Positions 9,983-18,163 are shown, counted from the first letter of the stretch. The stretch: 64,000 nt of DNA from Clostridiales bacterium (GCA_022508345.1 JAFLVK010000001.1:597841-661840); one strand, 5' to 3'. The notes: a model not told the origin generated them from the sequence alone. Made by a program: numbers and translations.

Positions 9983-11602
9983 GTGAAAAAATTTACAGTC
10001 ATTGTTCTATTTGTCGTATTGTTATTTACTTTTTCCGCGTGTTCGCTGTTGAATAATACAGGTGGTGGGCAAGGCGACGGAACTACAACGCCCGATTCGG
10101 AGGAAAACTACGAGTTCGGCGACGACATCAGCTACAACAACGACAAGTTCTACGAGGATTACTCGGAGGAGGAAAAGGAACTTTACTACACACTTTGGTC
10201 GGAGAAGACGAAAATCAATATTCAAATTGACATCACTCCATTAGAGCTTGCAAAGATAAACGAAGCAATGGACGACTACACTGCCAATCCGCGCAACACA
10301 GCAAAAGCTGACACTTACCGCAAATGCAACCTCACTATCACAGTAAATGACACGTCCTACTACTACGAAGAGGTGGGTATCCGCATGCGCGGCAACACCT
10401 CGCGCAGATACTTCGCCAATAGCGACGGCACCATTTACGACTTCGTGCATTTTCGCTTTAACCTAACCGAAACATTCGACGGCGAAGAATACGAGAATGG
10501 CGCTTGGGGTAAGGAAGCTTATCACGACTGGAGCGGTGACAAGGCCGGTCGCAAGGCGCGTAAAAATCGCAGCTTTGCCACAATGGAAAAGTTCTACTAC
10601 AAGTGGAACAAGAATTACGACCAAACCTACATTCGCGAAGTTTACGCAAACCGAATGTTCCAGGCTTACGGTATACTTGCCCCGCATATCACGCTTACCC
10701 AAATTCAACTGTTGCAAAATGGCGCAATGGAAAATCTGGGCGTCGGCGGACTGTATGAAACGATAGACAAGGCCTTTATCAAACGCAATTTCGACAAATC
10801 GCGCAAGGGTGGGGATCTTTACAAGTGCAGTTGGGGTGCAGACTTCACGTCGTATTCCGGCAAGTGTGGTGTGGAAACAGCAACGCATGCATATACCTAT
10901 GCGTTGAAAACCAACGACGACACAACCTCGGAAGATTACAACAACCACGAATATCTCAAAGCGTTTATCGATATGTTGAGAAACAGGCAAAATACCAGGG
11001 GCTTCAAAACCAAACTTGAGGCGATGGTGGATATGAACTACTTTACACGTTTTGAGGCTGTAAACTATCTGCTTGGCAATCCCGATTGTATCCGCAACAA
11101 CTGCAACAACTTCTACATTTACTTTGTACCTGTTGAGGGCGAAGATAAATCGACAAGTAAGGCGTACATCATTCCGTACGATTACGACCGTTGCTTGGGC
11201 GCGGATGTGGATTGGAACCCCAAAGAGGACAGCATGGTCAACGCCAAGCCCTACGACAAAAACGGCAGTATTGAATGTAACAATCCGCTTTACACCAAGA
11301 CCATCTTGAACGGCGGACTGGCTGAATACAAGGCAATGTACAAGTCTAAAATACAGCAAGTGCTTAACGGTAATTGGTTCAAGTACGAAACATACAAAAA
11401 GTTGTTCAACGCGTACAAGGCAAATTACAGCAGTGTGGCAATGCCCTCGGAGGCAATAATTGCTCAATGCGGCAATCATATCCGAATGGACCGCTTTGTG
11501 TTTAGTGAAACGGAAAGCAGCGACATTAACCGCAGCGACGTCAACCTGACCGTCAAGCTGTATATGGAACAAAAACGCCACACGGCAACTACAAGCATGT
11601 AA
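9983..11602 (+). CDS. CotH-family (atypical kinase-like) secreted lipoprotein
   Basis: 539 aa with a GTG start. Lipobox FSAC. Motifs GIRMRGNTSR and IIPYDYDRCLG are typical of CotH. Confidence 0.65.
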   Translation: MKKFTVIVLFVVLLFTFSACSLLNNTGGGQGDGTTTPDSEENYEFGDDISYNNDKFYEDYSEEEKELYYTLWSEKTKINIQIDITPLELAKINEAMDDYTANPRNTAKADTYRKCNLTITVNDTSYYYEEVGIRMRGNTSRRYFANSDGTIYDFVHFRFNLTETFDGEEYENGAWGKEAYHDWSGDKAGRKARKNRSFATMEKFYYKWNKNYDQTYIREVYANRMFQAYGILAPHITLTQIQLLQNGAMENLGVGGLYETIDKAFIKRNFDKSRKGGDLYKCSWGADFTSYSGKCGVETATHAYTYALKTNDDTTSEDYNNHEYLKAFIDMLRNRQNTRGFKTKLEAMVDMNYFTRFEAVNYLLGNPDCIRNNCNNFYIYFVPVEGEDKSTSKAYIIPYDYDRCLGADVDWNPKEDSMVNAKPYDKNGSIECNNPLYTKTILNGGLAEYKAMYKSKIQQVLNGNWFKYETYKKLFNAYKANYSSVAMPSEAIIAQCGNHIRMDRFVFSETESSDINRSDVNLTVKLYMEQKRHTATTSM

Positions 11603-11705: not shown

Positions 11706-11888
11706 ATGAAAACTAAGGTAAACGAAGATTGCATTGGTTGCGGAATGTGTGTGGAAGTGTGCCCCGAGGTGTTTGAAATAAACGGGGACGGAATGTCGCA
11801 TGTGGTGGGTGATCCCGACGCTTGCGCCGACCAAACCCTTCAAGCTGCTGAAATATGCCCCGTTAACGCCATAGAAGTGCAACAATAA
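11706..11888 (+). CDS. small 4Fe-4S ferredoxin
   Basis: 60 aa starting at an ATG preceded by aggagg. Motifs CIGCGMCVEVCP and a distal ICP. Confidence 0.8.
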   Translation: MKTKVNEDCIGCGMCVEVCPEVFEINGDGMSHVVGDPDACADQTLQAAEICPVNAIEVQQ

Positions 11889-11919
11889 TGTTTTTATGAT
11901 AGACAAAGCATTATGACAG

Positions 11920-11935
11920 ACATACTATATGTTGT
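11920..11935. promoter_or_regulatory. NrdR box 1
   Basis: acatactatatgttgt, a 16-bp near-palindrome matching the acaCwAtATaTwGtgt type. Confidence 0.6.
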
Positions 11936-11953
11936 GGCAAAAGTGAAAAAATA

Positions 11954-11969
11954 ACACAATATATTGTGT
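11954..11969. promoter_or_regulatory. NrdR box 2
   Basis: acacaatatattgtgt, a perfect 16-bp palindrome. Its centre is 34 bp from box 1 and it abuts the -35 element. Confidence 0.7.
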
Positions 11970-11977
11970 TTATATCG

Positions 11978-12006
11978 TTGACATATAGTGCGAAGTGTAA
12001 TACAAT
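11978..12006 (+). promoter_or_regulatory. nrdD promoter
   Basis: TTGACA, 17-nt spacer, TACAAT. Confidence 0.65.
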
Positions 12007-12042
12007 AGTAGCACTCCCATTTGGGGGCAACACGAGAATAGA

Positions 12043-12079
12043 ACCGACGTTTTAGCTACGAACTAAATGTCGGTTTTTG
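12043..12079 (+). promoter_or_regulatory. terminator-like hairpin in the nrdD 5' leader (possible attenuator)
   Basis: About 12-bp stem accgacgtttt-ag/ctaaatgtcggt with one wobble and one bulge, followed by TTTTT. Lies about 30 nt upstream of the nrdD ATG. Confidence 0.45.
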
Positions 12080-12109
12080 CCACCTTTTTGGGGAATACGG
12101 AGGAGAACT

Positions 12110-14473
12110 ATGTATCAAGTAAGAAAGAGAAACGGTCAAATTATCGATTTTAAGCTTTCTAAAATCAGCCAAGCAATCACGGCTGCTTTTGAAGGAGAAG
12201 AAAAGCCCTACAGCTCTGACGTTATCGACATGCTGTCGCTAAAGGTTACGGCAGACTTCATGGACAAGGTCAACAACGGCATCGTATCCGTTGAGGACAT
12301 TCAGGACAGTGTGGAGACGGTGCTTATTCAAGCCGGCTACGCCGACATTGCCAAGGCGTACATACTGTACCGCAAGACGCATGAAAACGCTCGTAAGGCA
12401 GGCGAGACCTTCCTTGATTACAAATCCGTAGTGGACAACTATCTAAAGATTGCCGACTGGCGCGTAAAGGAAAACAGTACCGTTACCTATTCGGTGGGAG
12501 GCTTGATTCTCAGCAACAGTGGCGCAATCACAGCTAACTACTGGCTCAGCGAAGTGTACGACGAGGAAATTGCCAATGCTCACCGCAGCGGTGCAATTCA
12601 CCTGCACGACCTCAGCATGCTTTCCGGATATTGCGCAGGCTGGTCGTTAAAGCAGCTCATCCAAGAGGGTCTTGGCGGTGTGGACAGCAAGATTACCTCC
12701 GCCCCTGCAAAGCACCTTGCAACGCTGTGCAACCAGATGGTAAACTTCATCGGTATCATGGCAAACGAATGGGCAGGCGCTCAGGCGTTCAGCTCCTTTG
12801 ATACATATCTTGCACCCTTTGTAAAGGCAGACAACCTCAGCTACGACGAAACAAAGAAGTGCATCGAATCTTTCATATACGGCGTAAATATCCCCGGACG
12901 TTGGGGTACACAGGCACCATTCAGTAACATCACGCTGGACTGGACTGTACCCGATGACCTTGCCGAACTCAACTGTATTGTAGGCGGTAAGGAAATGCCC
13001 TTCAAGTACAAGGACTGCAAACGCGAAATGGACATGGTAAACAAGGCGTTTATCGAAACCATGATTGAGGGCGACTACAACGGACGCGGCTTCCAATACC
13101 CCATCCCCACCTATTCCATCACCAAAGATTTCGACTGGAGCGAAACGGAAAACAACAAGCTGCTGTTTGAAATGACGGCTAAGTACGGTGCGCCGTATTT
13201 TTCCAACTACATCAACAGCGACATGCAACCCAGCGACGTTCGTAGTATGTGCTGCCGTTTGCGTCTTGACTTGCGCGAACTGCGCAAAAAGTCCGGCGGT
13301 TTCTTCGGAAGCGGTGAAAACACAGGTTCTGTGGGCGTTGTAACAATCAACATGCCCCGCATTGCATATCTAAGCAAGGACGAGACGGAATTTTTCAAGC
13401 GTCTGGACAAGATGATGGACATCTCCGCCCGCTCACTCAAGATCAAGCGTACAACTGTGACCAAGCTTATGGAAGCAGGCTTGTATCCGTACACAAAACG
13501 CTACCTTGGCACATTTGACAGCCATTTCTCTACAATCGGCTTGGTGGGCATGAACGAAGCTTGCCTCAATGCTAAATGGCTTGCTTGCAACCTTGTGGAC
13601 AAGCGCGCACAAGAATTCACCAAAAAGGTGTTGAACCACATGCGTGAGCGCCTAAGCGACTACCAGGAAAAGTACGGCGACTTGTACAACCTGGAAGCAA
13701 CCCCTGCCGAAAGCACATCCTACCGCTTGGCAAAGCACGATGCAAAGCTGTACCCGGATATGATTTTCGCAAGCAAAAAGGGCGAAACTCCCTACTACAC
13801 AAACAGCTCGCACCTGCCCGTAAGCTACACGGCAGACGCATTCGACGCGTTGGATATTCAGGACGAATTGCAAACGCTGTACACGTCAGGTACGGTATTC
13901 CACACATTCCTCGGTGAACGCTTGCCCGATTGGAAGTCGGCAATGAAGCTTGTGCGCACAATTGCTGAGAACTACCGTCTTCCCTACTACACAATGTCGC
14001 CCACCTATTCCGTATGCTCCGAACACGGCTACCTTGTAGGCGAACAGTACGAGTGTCCGCACTGCCACAAGAAGACGGAAGTGTACTCGCGTATCACAGG
14101 CTACTACCGTCCCGTACAAAACTGGAACGACGGCAAGGCTCAGGAATGGAAGGAACGCAGAACCTACAAGCCCGACCAAAGCACGTTGAAGAAATGCCTG
14201 TTTACCCACGAAGAAGAACAGGTTAAAGAGCAAGTAAGCATTGCAAAGCCCATTTTGTTCGTTCAGGACAACTGCCCTAACTGCAAGATGGCAGAGCTGA
14301 TGCTGGGTAAAGCCGGCGTTGACATCGAAGAGGTAAACGCAATGCAAAATGCCGAGTTATCCAAGAAATTTGCAGTAAAACTCACTCCCACGTTAGTAGT
14401 TCAAGAGGGCGACAGCTACAAGGTGTACGAAAACGCAAGTAACGTACGCAAGTATATTGAGAGTGTTAAATAG
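12110..14473 (+). CDS. nrdD: anaerobic (class III) ribonucleoside-triphosphate reductase with a fused C-terminal thioredoxin-fold CxxC domain
   Basis: 787 aa from the ATG after ggaggag. N-terminal ATP-cone, GAIHLHDL, CCRLRLD, Zn site CSEHG..CPHC, glycyl-radical motif SRITGYY. An extra tail carries CPNC (Cys codon at 14273) in an ILFVQDNCPNCK...TPTLVV context. Confidence 0.9.
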   Translation: MYQVRKRNGQIIDFKLSKISQAITAAFEGEEKPYSSDVIDMLSLKVTADFMDKVNNGIVSVEDIQDSVETVLIQAGYADIAKAYILYRKTHENARKAGETFLDYKSVVDNYLKIADWRVKENSTVTYSVGGLILSNSGAITANYWLSEVYDEEIANAHRSGAIHLHDLSMLSGYCAGWSLKQLIQEGLGGVDSKITSAPAKHLATLCNQMVNFIGIMANEWAGAQAFSSFDTYLAPFVKADNLSYDETKKCIESFIYGVNIPGRWGTQAPFSNITLDWTVPDDLAELNCIVGGKEMPFKYKDCKREMDMVNKAFIETMIEGDYNGRGFQYPIPTYSITKDFDWSETENNKLLFEMTAKYGAPYFSNYINSDMQPSDVRSMCCRLRLDLRELRKKSGGFFGSGENTGSVGVVTINMPRIAYLSKDETEFFKRLDKMMDISARSLKIKRTTVTKLMEAGLYPYTKRYLGTFDSHFSTIGLVGMNEACLNAKWLACNLVDKRAQEFTKKVLNHMRERLSDYQEKYGDLYNLEATPAESTSYRLAKHDAKLYPDMIFASKKGETPYYTNSSHLPVSYTADAFDALDIQDELQTLYTSGTVFHTFLGERLPDWKSAMKLVRTIAENYRLPYYTMSPTYSVCSEHGYLVGEQYECPHCHKKTEVYSRITGYYRPVQNWNDGKAQEWKERRTYKPDQSTLKKCLFTHEEEQVKEQVSIAKPILFVQDNCPNCKMAELMLGKAGVDIEEVNAMQNAELSKKFAVKLTPTLVVQEGDSYKVYENASNVRKYIESVK

Positions 14474-14481
14474 GTATTAAG

Positions 14482-15387
14482 ATGTATGATATCGTAGTTA
14501 TTGGCGGTGGACCTGCGGGTCTAACCGCCTCGCTATATGCGGCGCGTGCCGGCAAGAGCGTAATGCTACTTGAAGCAAACGCTTTCGGCGGGCAGATAGC
14601 CACAGCGCCAAGAGTGGAAAATTACCCATCTGTTGCAGAAACGACAGGCGCACAGCTAGCCGACAAAATGTTTGAGCAAGCAGTGTCGCACGGCGTGGAA
14701 TTTGACATGGGCACTGCTAACATAGAAAAGACTGATTTCGGTTTTAGGGTTACTACCGAATATTCAACCTACGACTGCCTGTCGGTGGTAATATCCACGG
14801 GTGTATCCCACAAAAAGCTGGGGCTAGCAAGTGAAGAAAAGCTAGCCGGTAACGGTGTGTGCTACTGTGCCGTATGCGACGGAGCATTTTACGCTAACAA
14901 GCCCGTATGTGTGGTGGGTGACGGCAACAGTGCAGCTCAGTATGCGCTGTACCTTGCGGAAATTTGCAGTGAGGTTCACCTGCTCACCATGTTCGACAAG
15001 CTGTTTTGCGACAGGGAACTGACAGACAGAATAGTTGCCAATGACAAAATCAACTGGGTACAAAATGTTACCGTTAGCGAGATTTTGGGCGAAAGCAATG
15101 TGGAGGGCGTAGTGTACCGTGATAGCGACGGTGCAATCACCTACCTTGATTTGGAGGCGGTTTTCGTTGCGATAGGGCAGGTTCCGCACAATACACAGTT
15201 TGCCCCTCTTGTGCAACTGGACGAGAAAGGCTACATTGTTGCAGGCGAAGACTGCAAAACCGACTGTGAGGGAATATTTGTTGCGGGCGACTGTCGCACC
15301 AAGAAGGTACGCCAATGCACAACAGCCGTCGGCGACGGTGCGGTAGCGGGTTTTTCCGCCGCAATGTATGTAGACAAGTTAAGTTGA
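14482..15387 (+). CDS. thioredoxin-reductase-like flavoprotein lacking the NADPH HRRxxxR signature
   Basis: 301 aa. GGGPAG FAD motif and CAVCDG redox disulfide. The second nucleotide site is VGDGNSA, followed by VHLLTMFDKLFCD where E. coli TrxB has VHLIHRRDGFRAE. Confidence 0.8.
   Translation: MYDIVVIGGGPAGLTASLYAARAGKSVMLLEANAFGGQIATAPRVENYPSVAETTGAQLADKMFEQAVSHGVEFDMGTANIEKTDFGFRVTTEYSTYDCLSVVISTGVSHKKLGLASEEKLAGNGVCYCAVCDGAFYANKPVCVVGDGNSAAQYALYLAEICSEVHLLTMFDKLFCDRELTDRIVANDKINWVQNVTVSEILGESNVEGVVYRDSDGAITYLDLEAVFVAIGQVPHNTQFAPLVQLDEKGYIVAGEDCKTDCEGIFVAGDCRTKKVRQCTTAVGDGAVAGFSAAMYVDKLS
15329..15384 (+). repeat. direct repeat DR1a (3' end of trxB-like gene)
   Basis: 56 bp, 55/56 identical to 17019-17074. 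Confidence 0.95.
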
Positions 15388-15433: not shown

Positions 15434-15510
15434 TGAGACTGGCGCAAAAGTAAATAAGGAATTATTAAGGACCTTGTGCAAACAGGGCCCTTTTTCTATA
15501 TTTAATACTA

Positions 15511-15575: not shown

Positions 15576-15604
15576 TTGACAATGGTTTTAATAGCCATTA
15601 TAAT
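15576..15604 (+). promoter_or_regulatory. consensus promoter of the abiH-like gene
   Basis: TTGACA, 17-nt spacer, TATAAT. Confidence 0.65.
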
Positions 15605-15641
15605 ATTGAGGGATTATACACAAAGGAGATTGGGTATACGA

Positions 15642-16889
15642 ATGACATCACAACTTCTTATTTTAGGAAATGGTTTTGACCTTCAATGTGGATTGAAGTC
15701 CAGTTACAAAGACTTTTTTCGTCAAGCAATACTTTATGCAATTACTGAAAGATTTGGTCTTGCACAAATGAAGTACGGAGTTGCAGGTTTTTGGGAAAAT
15801 TTATTGTATGAATACTATAAGAAATATGATAATGATGATTATAAATGGTGTGACATCGAAAGTATAATTAAAAATACACTTTGGGACATGGGGCTTGGGA
15901 AAAAAAATACAGACGGTATTGTGAAAAATATATTGGACTGTGTAAACAACAAATGTTTTCCAAACTATGACTCTACAAAAGATTCAATAGAGCTATTTCT
16001 GTCAAAATACTGCTTCAATTTCTTTATCAAACTTTCTCCAAGGCACAAAGTATGCAGCGACCAAGAAAAAGTACGATTACTTATAGAACGCCTATTGTTA
16101 GAGTTAAATAATTTTGAAAGACGGTTCTGTAAATATATTAAGAATAATATTGTAAACCAAAAAAACGGAGAAGAAATAAATGAAGGATATATTATCAATG
16201 CTGTTAATTTGCTTGCAAAACTTACGGGGTTTTCTAACAATGTATTTAAAAGTATTAATAACATAATTAGAGAAGAAAGAAGATACTACGAAGAAGAACA
16301 TCAGCGTGCGACAGTTGCTGGTTTCAAGAACATAAACGTATTGAAGGAAGAATTTACCAAAGTTAAAAATATACATATCTTAAGCTTTAATTACACGGCG
16401 CTTTTTGATATATTAGGCGTTCCAAGTCCATGGGTATATAGTAATGTGCACGGTAAACTATGCAATGAATTGTGTTCTGAAAATTGTCTTTCTTCAAGTA
16501 TTATATTTGGAATTGACGACAAGTTAATACAGTCACAAAGTGAATACAATGACTTGCGAGTATTTAGTAAAACCTATAGAAAGATGTTTAATACAAGTTC
16601 ACCCGAAAGCGTATTGCCAAACAACGATGAAACAGTAGACATTAAGTTTTACGGGCACTCGCTTAGTGAAGCAGATTACTCCTATTTTCAGAGTATTTTT
16701 GACTATTACAATTTATATGGAAATAGTAGCGTAAGTCTATATTTCTATTATTCGGAGAATTATGACCCCACCGATGCGGTTTATCGGCTGATAAATGAAT
16801 ATGGTAAAACCTTGACAAACAAAGACCAAGGCAAAAATTTGATGCACAAATTGTTATTAGAAAATAGAATTAATATACAAAAAATATAA
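15642..16889 (+). CDS. AbiH-family abortive-infection protein
   Basis: 415 aa from the ATG. The N-terminus LLILGNGFDLQCGLKSSYKDFF is the characteristic AbiH start. AT-rich relative to its flanks. Confidence 0.75.
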   Translation: MTSQLLILGNGFDLQCGLKSSYKDFFRQAILYAITERFGLAQMKYGVAGFWENLLYEYYKKYDNDDYKWCDIESIIKNTLWDMGLGKKNTDGIVKNILDCVNNKCFPNYDSTKDSIELFLSKYCFNFFIKLSPRHKVCSDQEKVRLLIERLLLELNNFERRFCKYIKNNIVNQKNGEEINEGYIINAVNLLAKLTGFSNNVFKSINNIIREERRYYEEEHQRATVAGFKNINVLKEEFTKVKNIHILSFNYTALFDILGVPSPWVYSNVHGKLCNELCSENCLSSSIIFGIDDKLIQSQSEYNDLRVFSKTYRKMFNTSSPESVLPNNDETVDIKFYGHSLSEADYSYFQSIFDYYNLYGNSSVSLYFYYSENYDPTDAVYRLINEYGKTLTNKDQGKNLMHKLLLENRINIQKI

Positions 16890-17149: not shown

Positions 17150-18163
17150 TTAGTTTATTTTTACAATTTTTGATTTCAGTCCCGTATCAAAGGGGTTTAT
17201 CTTCGACATTTCCTTGTCCAGGTTGTCGAAGCTGATTGTTGCGCCTATCAATGGGTCGATATTGACGGTATCCGTTACCAACAGATTGATTGCCGACGAG
17301 TAGTTGCCTGCGCCATTGTAAACGCCGAAGATGTTGAGGTGCTTGCGACATATTTGCGCTACCGACAGCTTGCTGTCCTTGTTGCTGTAGCCTGCAAGGC
17401 AAATGTTGGCATTGAATGTTACCACACTGTAAACGTCTTTCATGTTGATGTCGCTGTTGGAAAGCAGTATCAGCTCCTTGCATTTTCTGCCACCTGTTAC
17501 AGCAAGTATTTCCTCTTCTACGTCCGTTTCGTCGGGGTTGAAGCAGTACATTACTCCCAATTCTCTTGCCATATCAAGCAGTTCAACGCGACTACTGATG
17601 AGTACGGGCACCGCTTGATAGTAAGCTATCAATTGAGCCAATATCAAGGCTTGCTTGGTTTCGCCGAATATTGCAATGTGGCGACCTTTTTCCAAATTCA
17701 GCGCGTCGCAAATGTTGAGACAAAATGCAACCATGGGTACAAATAACGCCTTTTCATTGCGAAGTTGATCGGGCAAGGTGTGTAGTTGAGAGTAGGGCAA
17801 ATCAATAAAGTTGCAAAGCAGCCCATTGCAGTTGTAACCAAGCTCCTTCAAATTGGAGCAATTGGTGTAATTGCCACTTTTGCACTCATCGCAAATCTCG
17901 CATGGAACGCACGGTTCAATTACCACCCTGTCCATTTTGCGCAGGATTGGATTGTCGCCGTGAACAACCGACACAACACCCACAGCATATCGCCCTATGA
18001 TAAAGGGATATTTGCGCTTGGCTGCACCGGTGTAAATTTCGATATCGGAGTTGTTTAACAAAACCTCTTCAATCTTGACCTTTATTAAATTTTCAGTTAT
18101 CTCGGTAGGTTGGGATTCCTGCAAGGTAAGTTTGCCGGGCTCCTCAAGTATCCAAGCTTTCAT
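17150..18163 (-). CDS. medium-chain (zinc-type) alcohol/polyol dehydrogenase family protein
   Basis: 337 aa. Structural-zinc Cys cluster CVPCEICDECKSGNYTNC and an MDR-like layout. The catalytic GHE motif is non-canonical (GRYAVG). Confidence 0.6.
   Translation of the reverse strand: MKAWILEEPGKLTLQESQPTEITENLIKVKIEEVLLNNSDIEIYTGAAKRKYPFIIGRYAVGVVSVVHGDNPILRKMDRVVIEPCVPCEICDECKSGNYTNCSNLKELGYNCNGLLCNFIDLPYSQLHTLPDQLRNEKALFVPMVAFCLNICDALNLEKGRHIAIFGETKQALILAQLIAYYQAVPVLISSRVELLDMARELGVMYCFNPDETDVEEEILAVTGGRKCKELILLSNSDINMKDVYSVVTFNANICLAGYSNKDSKLSVAQICRKHLNIFGVYNGAGNYSSAINLLVTDTVNIDPLIGATISFDNLDKEMSKINPFDTGLKSKIVKIN

Follow-up and report, generated by a model that had tools for sequence, protein, structure and literature searches.

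In a gut Clostridia bacterium (genome G000; 1.40 Mb, 94.9% complete), nrdD and the thioredoxin reductase (TR) gene directly behind it appear to form an operon that unites the only ribonucleotide reductase (RNR) of the cell with a private reducing system, and this system is probably fed by a protein electron carrier rather than by NAD(P)H. We assign this reading a probability of about 0.7. Both genes are located in the 64,000-nt window analysed here (G000:C1:597841-661840). NrdD is a 787 aa class III RNR that ends in a thioredoxin (Trx)-fold domain, and the TR homologue has the scaffold of a TR but lacks the motifs that bind NAD(P)H. What the analysis shows is the anatomy of the locus, the fold of the tail, the set of key residues and that the gene pair is conserved.

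For electron transfer, donor included, we infer the following route. Each NrdD turnover would oxidise Cys175 and a finger-loop Cys to a disulfide. The Trx-fold domain, tethered by a flexible linker of ~25 residues, would re-reduce this disulfide with its CPNC motif. In turn, the co-transcribed TR paralogue would re-reduce the tethered domain via FAD and Cys129/Cys132. As TR has lost the 2'-phosphate site and its pyrophosphate motif is degenerate, its own electrons probably come from a protein carrier and not from NAD(P)H. The candidate carrier in this genome is reduced ferredoxin (Fd) made by PFOR.

The nrdD-TR transcription unit

Three plus-strand genes between 11.7 and 15.4 kb of the window encode Fd, NrdD and the TR homologue. 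The features of this region are:

11706-11888 (+): ferredoxin gene, 60 aa, single-[4Fe-4S]-type (Fer4_13, 53.4 bits)
11920-11935 and 11954-11969 (+): two 16-bp NrdR-box-like palindromes, read from the sequence
11978-12006 (+): sigma-70-type nrdD promoter, TTGACA-17-TACAAT, 11 of 12 consensus matches
12007-12109 (+): structured 5' leader, hairpin followed by a U-run (~12041-12079); minimum free energy -32 kcal/mol, z = -3.57 versus shuffles
12110-14473 (+): nrdD, whole gene, 787 aa (NF006126, 1103 bits)
12110-14170 (+): NrdD proper, with ATP-cone, catalytic barrel and glycyl-radical domain (PF03477; PF13597, 626 bits)
14171-14245 (+): linker of ~25 aa (aa 688-712), charged, one Cys (Cys696), low pLDDT
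14246-14473 (+): Trx-fold redoxin domain at the C-terminus (aa 713-787), containing CPNC; AlphaFold2 (AF2) pLDDT 91.2, Foldseek matches
14482-15387 (+): low-Mr TR paralogue, 301 aa, with FAD motif, CxxC and remodelled pyridine-nucleotide site
15472-15487 (+): terminator-like hairpin and T-run 3' of the TR gene

The nrdD stop codon and the TR gene are separated by 8 nt. The Fd gene is located on the same strand 220 nt upstream of nrdD. The NrdR boxes abut the nrdD promoter, and both lie between the Fd gene and nrdD; an initial annotation of this DNA had likewise placed the Fd gene just upstream of the NrdR-box promoter. NrdR itself is encoded in the genome (TIGR00244, 197 bits). Since a promoter and NrdR boxes belonging to nrdD itself separate it from the Fd gene and a terminator-like hairpin follows TR, the transcription unit should comprise nrdD and TR with the Fd gene outside. 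This suggests a two-gene operon controlled by NrdR.

The hairpin and U-run of the nrdD leader (12007-12109) end ~30 nt upstream of the start codon and could, by their sequence, act as an attenuator. Compared with Rfam, the spacer between Fd and nrdD and the leader gave chance-level matches only and no family.

The catalytic part of NrdD

NrdD comprises an ATP-cone (aa 3-92) and an NRDD domain (aa 121-686) and scores above the cut-offs of both PF13597 and NF006126. Its glycyl-radical motif is RITG664YY, with the Gly664 codon at 14099-14101. The other key residues are Cys175, the finger loop Met380-Cys381-Cys382-Arg383 (MCCR) and Glu529. Similarity to Thermotoga maritima NrdD (PDB 4COI) is modest (133 bits). 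In the HMMER alignment to this protein, MCCR falls on SCCR, Cys175 on the beta-A Cys and Glu529 (in NLEATP) opposite Glu495 (NIE495QV). Cys175, MCCR, Glu529 and Gly664 are unchanged across 120 fused NrdD homologues. The Glu495 column defines the proton-donor Glu of thiol-type NrdD (PMC9669993), and a double-Cys loop combined with this Glu is the criterion for thiol-dependent NrdD chemistry (PMC9669993, PMC4493059). Because the double-Cys loop, Cys175 and Glu529 are present, the sequence places NrdD among the thiol-capable (NrdD2-like) class III enzymes, those with the double cysteine and the glutamate. The subclass alignment thus agrees with the thiol-type NrdD proposed in the initial annotation; given the Met of MCCR, formate may serve as well.

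A single NrdD is encoded in G000, and neither a class I or II RNR nor a PFL-like enzyme was found in this 94.9% complete genome. Judged by gene content, NrdD is therefore the sole RNR of G000, and there is no obvious internal source of formate. With one RNR, no NADPH-type TR and a genome of 1.4 Mb, the nrdD-TR pair is probably essential in this organism.

The zinc-ribbon ligands Cys636, His639, Cys649 and Cys652 (aa 636-652, window 14015-14065) are unchanged as well. The zinc site would be Cys3His instead of the four-Cys site described for T4 NrdD.

The redoxin tail

Downstream of Gly664, NrdD continues for 123 residues, and the CPNC codons start at 14273. The tail contains the redox motif Cys722-Pro-Asn-Cys725 and a cis-Pro loop at Thr759-Pro760. 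An AF2 model of aa 706-787, calculated with 41 homologous tails, has a pLDDT of 91.2 and the order beta-alpha-beta-alpha-beta-beta-alpha. Foldseek aligns this model with thioredoxins in the PDB at TM values of 0.65-0.75 and a probability of 1.00. A profile of the tail family has the Pyrococcus glutaredoxin-like protein disulfide oxidoreductase as its top match (~2e-8). When the single tail sequence is used, the Pfam models Glutaredoxin (21.2 bits) and Thioredoxin (19.2 bits) both remain below their gathering scores. Among the tails, CPNC, the T-P cis-Pro loop and ENASN vary little or not at all, and CPNC is invariant in the 120 homologues. The predicted structure identifies the tail as a Trx-fold domain in which CxxC lies at the N-terminal end of helix 1 and a cis-Pro loop is present. 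An extension of about 120 aa past the glycyl motif with a Trx-like CPNC module had been claimed before; its length and coordinates were confirmed, and fold prediction, structure matches and the invariant CPNC bear out its nature.

The linker has pLDDT values below 50 at aa 693-708 in the full-length NrdD model. This model is otherwise poor (mean pLDDT 63) and is based on a shallow alignment of close relatives; it was rejected for placing the tail relative to the active site, although the tail itself is modelled with good confidence. In other genera, linkers of 21-60 aa are found, and 14 of 29 contain at least two Cys.

Cys patches (CC, CxC, CCCC) are located in these 14 of the 29 linkers (L021-L048). 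The window linker has Cys696 only. By analogy, such patches recall the shuttle Cys pairs in the C-terminal tails of class I and II RNRs.

The reductase and its remodelled pocket

The TR homologue has the FAD motif GGGPAG (aa 8-13), the redox-active Cys129-AV-Cys132 (CAVCDG) and FVAGD270. All three are invariant in the alignment of TR homologues. Its nucleotide site consists of G146-D-G-N-S-A-A-Q153 and T169-M-F-D-K-L-F-C-D177. In place of the 2'-phosphate motif VxxxHRRDxxRA, TR reads VHLLTMFDKLFC, and in place of GGGxxAxE it reads GDGNSAAQ. In the HMMER alignment to solved NADPH-dependent TRs, 'VHLLTMFDKLFCD' stands opposite 'VTIVHRRDTLRAQ' and GDGNSAAQ opposite GGGDSAVE. The replacement residues are kept across the TR clade, and close relatives read GDANTA, in which the second Gly is also lost. 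This confirms the earlier statement that the TR encoded 8 nt downstream of nrdD lacks the arginines for NADPH, with TMFDKLFCD opposite the HRR motif. On TIGR01292, TR scores 294.9 bits, below the cut-off of 343.45.

The closest solved relatives of TR are the Firmicutes-type NADPH-TRs 7AAW and 4GCM (~210 bits). Solved NADPH-TRs score between 180 and 212 bits, whereas chains of the FFTR type (flavin thioredoxin reductases that depend on ferredoxin), 5NII among them, are weak matches with 107-124 bits. 6GNA, 6GNC and 6GND, which we take to be structures of the Clostridium acetobutylicum FFTR, are found at the bottom of the list with 115-124 bits. The comparison with clostridial FFTRs drawn in the initial annotation is not borne out by these scores. 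Judged from PDB bit scores only (the tree was built without FFTR, DDOR and DTR references), TR falls outside the group of clostridial FFTRs that have been characterised.

Complex prediction, which had been proposed as a check on the contact between tail and reductase, lends it weak support. TR and tail obtained a score of 0.55, the best control 0.00. No less than 93% of contacts were shared between the docking runs, with a pLDDT of at least 84 for the partner. Of 80 solved complexes, 58 attain the mark applied here, as do 2 of 110 mismatches; with scores of 0.60 or less, only 7 of those 80 attain it, and both mismatches. Since solved TR-Trx complexes exist, the pass may reflect only likeness to them or memory of them.

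Distribution of the fusion and the reductase lineage

The fusion was surveyed in 400 genomes from 217 genera sampled from the same class. The tail was found in 77 genomes and 51 genera, almost always within open reading frames (ORFs) of 790-830 aa. Nearly all fused loci have CPNC, a few CPKC, CPQC, CAKC or CVNC. Among 69 loci examined, 44 have a TR gene at most 1.5 kb downstream of the fused nrdD. The pockets of these 44 TRs are distributed as follows:

Q-type, 26 of 44: QNLxxxTGE, GGGNSALQ kept
HRR-type, 13 of 44: canonical HRR
TLFDK-type, 4 of 44: as in the window; found in the window's own order
Unreadable, 1 of 44: contig end

In all nine related loci viewed in detail, TR follows the fused nrdD directly, and a gene for an nrdG-type radical-SAM protein is usually adjacent. 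As the fusion and the TR gene behind it recur across many genera, this arrangement is, on the evidence of gene order, more than chance.

To compare the reductases, an IQ-TREE of TRs including 48 nrdD-linked ones was built with both pocket regions removed. All 48 form one group (SH-aLRT 95), and the second TR paralogues encoded in G000 and in four genomes from the same order (G009, G300, G168 and G113) fall outside it. The window TR belongs to a 14-row TLF clade (SH-aLRT 97), and HRR-type members neighbour both remodelled types. From the sequences, it looks as if one NrdD-dedicated TR lineage exists within which the donor site changed at least twice. The change would have proceeded from HRR to the other pockets, since HRR is what the family generally has. 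A more far-reaching view, possible rather than probable, is that this lineage, dedicated to redoxin-fused NrdD in gut Clostridia, left NADPH at least two times (TLFDK and Q-type), and that in organisms without any HRR-type TR both dNTP synthesis and all thiol-disulfide reduction are wired directly to the pool of ferredoxin reduced by PFOR.

The idea of a single clade, marked by the TLFDK motif and also occurring independently of NrdD, was rejected. In a first FastTree with the pocket columns included, P0264, P0339 and P0290, none of which is located beside nrdD, fell within the clade of the window TR. Upon removal of the pocket columns, P0264 and P0290 moved outside the nrdD-linked group; P0339 is not in that tree. 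One TLFDK-pocket TR homologue (L060 4001-4915) is encoded on an 84-kb metagenomic contig among genes for a ClpP protease, a PhoH-like protein and a RecD2-like helicase. No nrdD is nearby, and the setting looks phage-like. With the pocket columns removed, this homologue is placed outside the nrdD-linked group, where the motif may be convergent.

Electron donor and competing explanations

All three arginines of the 2'-phosphate site are gone from TR, which makes NADPH a very unlikely donor as far as sequence can tell. PFOR is encoded in G000 (1897 bits) together with two small ferredoxins, the neighbour of nrdD and a clostridial-type 2x[4Fe-4S] protein (C1:47893-48060). The genome search revealed no flavodoxin over cut-off, no rubredoxin and no HRR-type TR. 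Because PFOR and two ferredoxins are present and neither flavodoxin nor rubredoxin was found, reduced ferredoxin from PFOR is the best guess for the carrier; by elimination, we give it almost an even chance.

A second TR paralogue in G000 (C1:178082-178945; L002 1465-2370, minus strand) also lacks HRRxxxR and reads VAVPQANFTAEE. Three genomes of 0.8-0.9 Mb from the same order (L064, L066, L067) have no HRR-type TR but IISKNPELKLK and similar sequences, and G009, also of this order, retains one HRR-type TR. By sequence, organisms like the one studied here may do without any NADPH-linked thioredoxin system.

Several points weigh against a private, carrier-fed reductase as the reductant of NrdD. 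In 25 of the 69 fused loci, no TR gene is present within 1.5 kb downstream, i.e. an adjacent TR is not strictly needed. The second TR paralogue and a canonical WCGPC TrxA in the genome (L017 1492-1803, minus strand) could also serve NrdD. Ferredoxin as donor is proposed by elimination and by analogy, and the FFTRs that have been characterised are no near relatives of TR. With the Met of MCCR, NrdD keeps what is thought to be needed for the use of formate, and thiols may not be its sole route. Furthermore, the window TR retains the spacing G-x-G-x-x-A (GDGNSA), which is compatible by sequence with NADH binding.

This last point leads to the alternative that the pocket was re-tuned from NADPH to NADH, with electrons passing from NADH via TR and the tail to NrdD. 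NADH-preferring TRs without HRR are known, namely the T. maritima TR and Desulfovibrio vulgaris TR3 (PMC5627308), and the Q-type relatives of the window TR retain GGGNSALQ. However, the end of beta-2 in the window TR (Thr169, Met170, Phe171) has no acidic residue, Asp147 is located inside the pyrophosphate loop, and GDANTA of the clade lacks the second Gly. The two D. vulgaris enzymes provide a comparison: TR3, which uses NADH, retains the pyrophosphate motif GGGxxAxE, whereas TRi (GEGxxAxN, VxxxTQGK) is reduced by neither NADPH nor NADH (PMC5627308). For these reasons, NADH is not favoured on sequence grounds, and we regard the alternative as unlikely.

A protein carrier could also be dedicated. 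The initial annotation had proposed a self-contained chain of three genes in which the adjacent 60-aa Fd donates electrons to TR, TR to the Trx domain and this domain to NrdD. Several observations favour such a chain: the same-strand position of the Fd gene close to nrdD, a homologous Fd at the same spot in a close relative (L049, NrdD tail 82% identical), PFOR without a detectable flavodoxin or rubredoxin in the genome, and the use of ferredoxin by clostridial FFTRs (PMC10880999, PMC12796991). The nrdD-TR part of the chain stood, as this pair is conserved. The Fd part did not. Both the nrdD promoter and the NrdR boxes come after the Fd gene. The Fd cassette of ~190 bp is inverted in L049, the closest relative examined (window 11690-11878 matches L049 3710-3521), while its flanks are collinear (window 11492-11588 and 11889-11984); no clear flanking inverted repeat was found around the cassette in the comparison of the two loci. 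The 835-bp spacer between the upstream gene and nrdD in L050, which belongs to the same group of relatives, contains no Fd ORF, and no Fd homologue was found within 4-5 kb of nrdD in the seven more distant loci L012, L014, L015 and L051-L054. In addition, the clostridial-type ferredoxin encoded elsewhere in G000 is a second candidate. Since the Fd gene precedes the separate promoter of nrdD, is inverted in L049 and is missing beside nrdD elsewhere, it is not supported by sequence as a conserved or dedicated part of the nrdD-TR module, and the three-gene chain appears improbable. The adjacent Fd is most plausibly a neighbour and one of two candidate ferredoxin donors, plausible by elimination and not by linkage.

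NrdD might instead be driven by formate in vivo. Tail and TR would then keep the Cys of the active site or zinc site reduced after exposure to oxygen or have a regulatory role. The Met of the finger loop, which is linked to formate chemistry, speaks for this: a Met before the double Cys means that the enzyme also has the components for using formate (PMC9669993, PMC4493059), and the 83% of double-Cys NrdDs that retain the loop Met may take either reductant (PMC9669993). The lack of a detectable PFL-like gene in G000 points in the other direction, as do the invariant Glu529 and extra Cys and the TR gene at a distance of 8 nt, which is kept behind the fusion in many genera, those with NADPH-type TRs included. 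We consider a purely formate-driven NrdD distinctly improbable. That the TR homologue has decayed into an inactive paralogue is hardly credible: its TIGR01292 score is below cut-off and its relatives are annotated only as 'FAD-dependent oxidoreductase', but its FAD, CAVC and GD motifs show no variation, the residues that replace the usual pocket are conserved in the clade, and the intact ORF is coupled to the sole RNR.

Genomic context

As stated in the initial annotation, the window contains no nrdG. The genome search located this gene ~70 kb upstream of nrdD (G000:C1:539049-539618; TIGR02495, 204 bits, above cut-off; Radical_SAM and Fer4_12). A defective system due to a missing nrdG was rejected, as this gene is intact. 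In L015, psuG, nrdG, nrdD and TR are contiguous. Therefore, a rearrangement would have separated nrdG from nrdD in the lineage of the window. In G000, nrdG is found directly downstream of a psuG-like (Indigoidine_A) gene (C1:537549-541118, L010).

On the other side of the operon, an AbiH-family gene (window 15576-16889; PF14253, 74 bits) is located between TR and a zinc-ADH gene (17150-18163, minus strand). TR is directly followed by the ADH gene in L049 and L050. For this reason, the AbiH gene looks, by gene order, like an insertion in this genome. Close homologues of the proteins studied here are annotated as originating from metagenome-assembled genomes of 'Clostridia/Clostridiales bacterium'.

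Comparison with known systems

A chain from ferredoxin via a reductase and a small redoxin to a class III RNR is the established precedent for what the initial annotation proposed. It was reportedly described in 2015 by Wei et al. for Methanosarcina barkeri, where NrdD3 is said to operate with NrdH and a ferredoxin:disulfide reductase encoded beside nrdD. The M. barkeri reductase is an Fe-S enzyme of the FTR-like type and not a flavoprotein, whereas the window TR is a flavoprotein homologue. Moreover, M. barkeri NrdD3 lacks the Glu that the window NrdD has (Glu529), and its redoxin is a separate protein.

On the side of the RNR, the NrdD2 enzymes of Neisseria bacilliformis and T. maritima are described as running on Trx, TrxR and NADPH (PMC9669993, PMC4493059). 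They share with the window NrdD the double-Cys loop, the beta-A Cys and the active-site Glu, and electrons arrive or would arrive via a Trx-fold protein and a low-Mr TR (PMC9669993, PMC4493059). By contrast, in the window the redoxin is fused, TR is encoded in the operon and lacks the NADPH site, and the finger loop reads MCCR and not SCCR.

On the side of the reductase, clostridial FFTRs have a low-Mr scaffold, FAD, CxxC and no GxGxxA/HRRxxxR signature for NADPH in common with the window TR, and occur in anaerobic Firmicutes with PFOR and ferredoxin (PMC10880999, PMC12796991). The window TR differs from them by weak similarity (115-124 bits), by other pocket residues and by its membership in an NrdD-tied lineage with HRR-type members. 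D. vulgaris TRi resembles the window TR in an acidic residue of the pyrophosphate loop (GEG/GDG), in Thr for the His of HRR and in the exchange of E for N or Q where the pyrophosphate motif ends. In contrast to the window TR, it has TQ/NGK instead of T[LM]FDK, is encoded monocistronically, has a free Trx as partner and is not linked to an RNR (PMC5627308).

Fusion of a redoxin to an RNR has an experimental parallel. The Grx::NrdB fusion of Facklamia ignava was shown to act as RNR reductant, and a RefSeq search listed one grx::nrdD fusion, from Lachnospiraceae bacterium TWA4 (PMC6187632). In both F. ignava and the window, a Trx-fold domain is part of the RNR polypeptide and its own reductant, shown in the former and presumed in the latter. 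The F. ignava fusion is class I, N-terminal and glutathione-dependent, whereas that of the window is class III and C-terminal. In the literature searched, no paper was found that describes the breadth of the NrdD fusion or its private TR, or characterises either.

Beyond the formate paradigm, the reductant of class III RNRs is known for few enzymes, and the redoxin-fused NrdD, carried by about a fifth of the sampled Clostridia species, offers a widespread test case. The donor site of its private TR exists in three natural versions including the canonical one for NADPH. Comparing them would show how strict anaerobes re-plumb the electron supply of DNA-precursor synthesis, and what reduces NAD(P)H-independent TRs such as the TRi-type enzymes. 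If the more far-reaching view of the TR lineage is correct, DNA replication in this organism would be coupled to low-potential carbon metabolism and not to NADPH. Thiol-dependent class III RNRs are known; what appears to be new, judged from the sequences, is the combination of a tethered redoxin with a private reductase whose donor has shifted.

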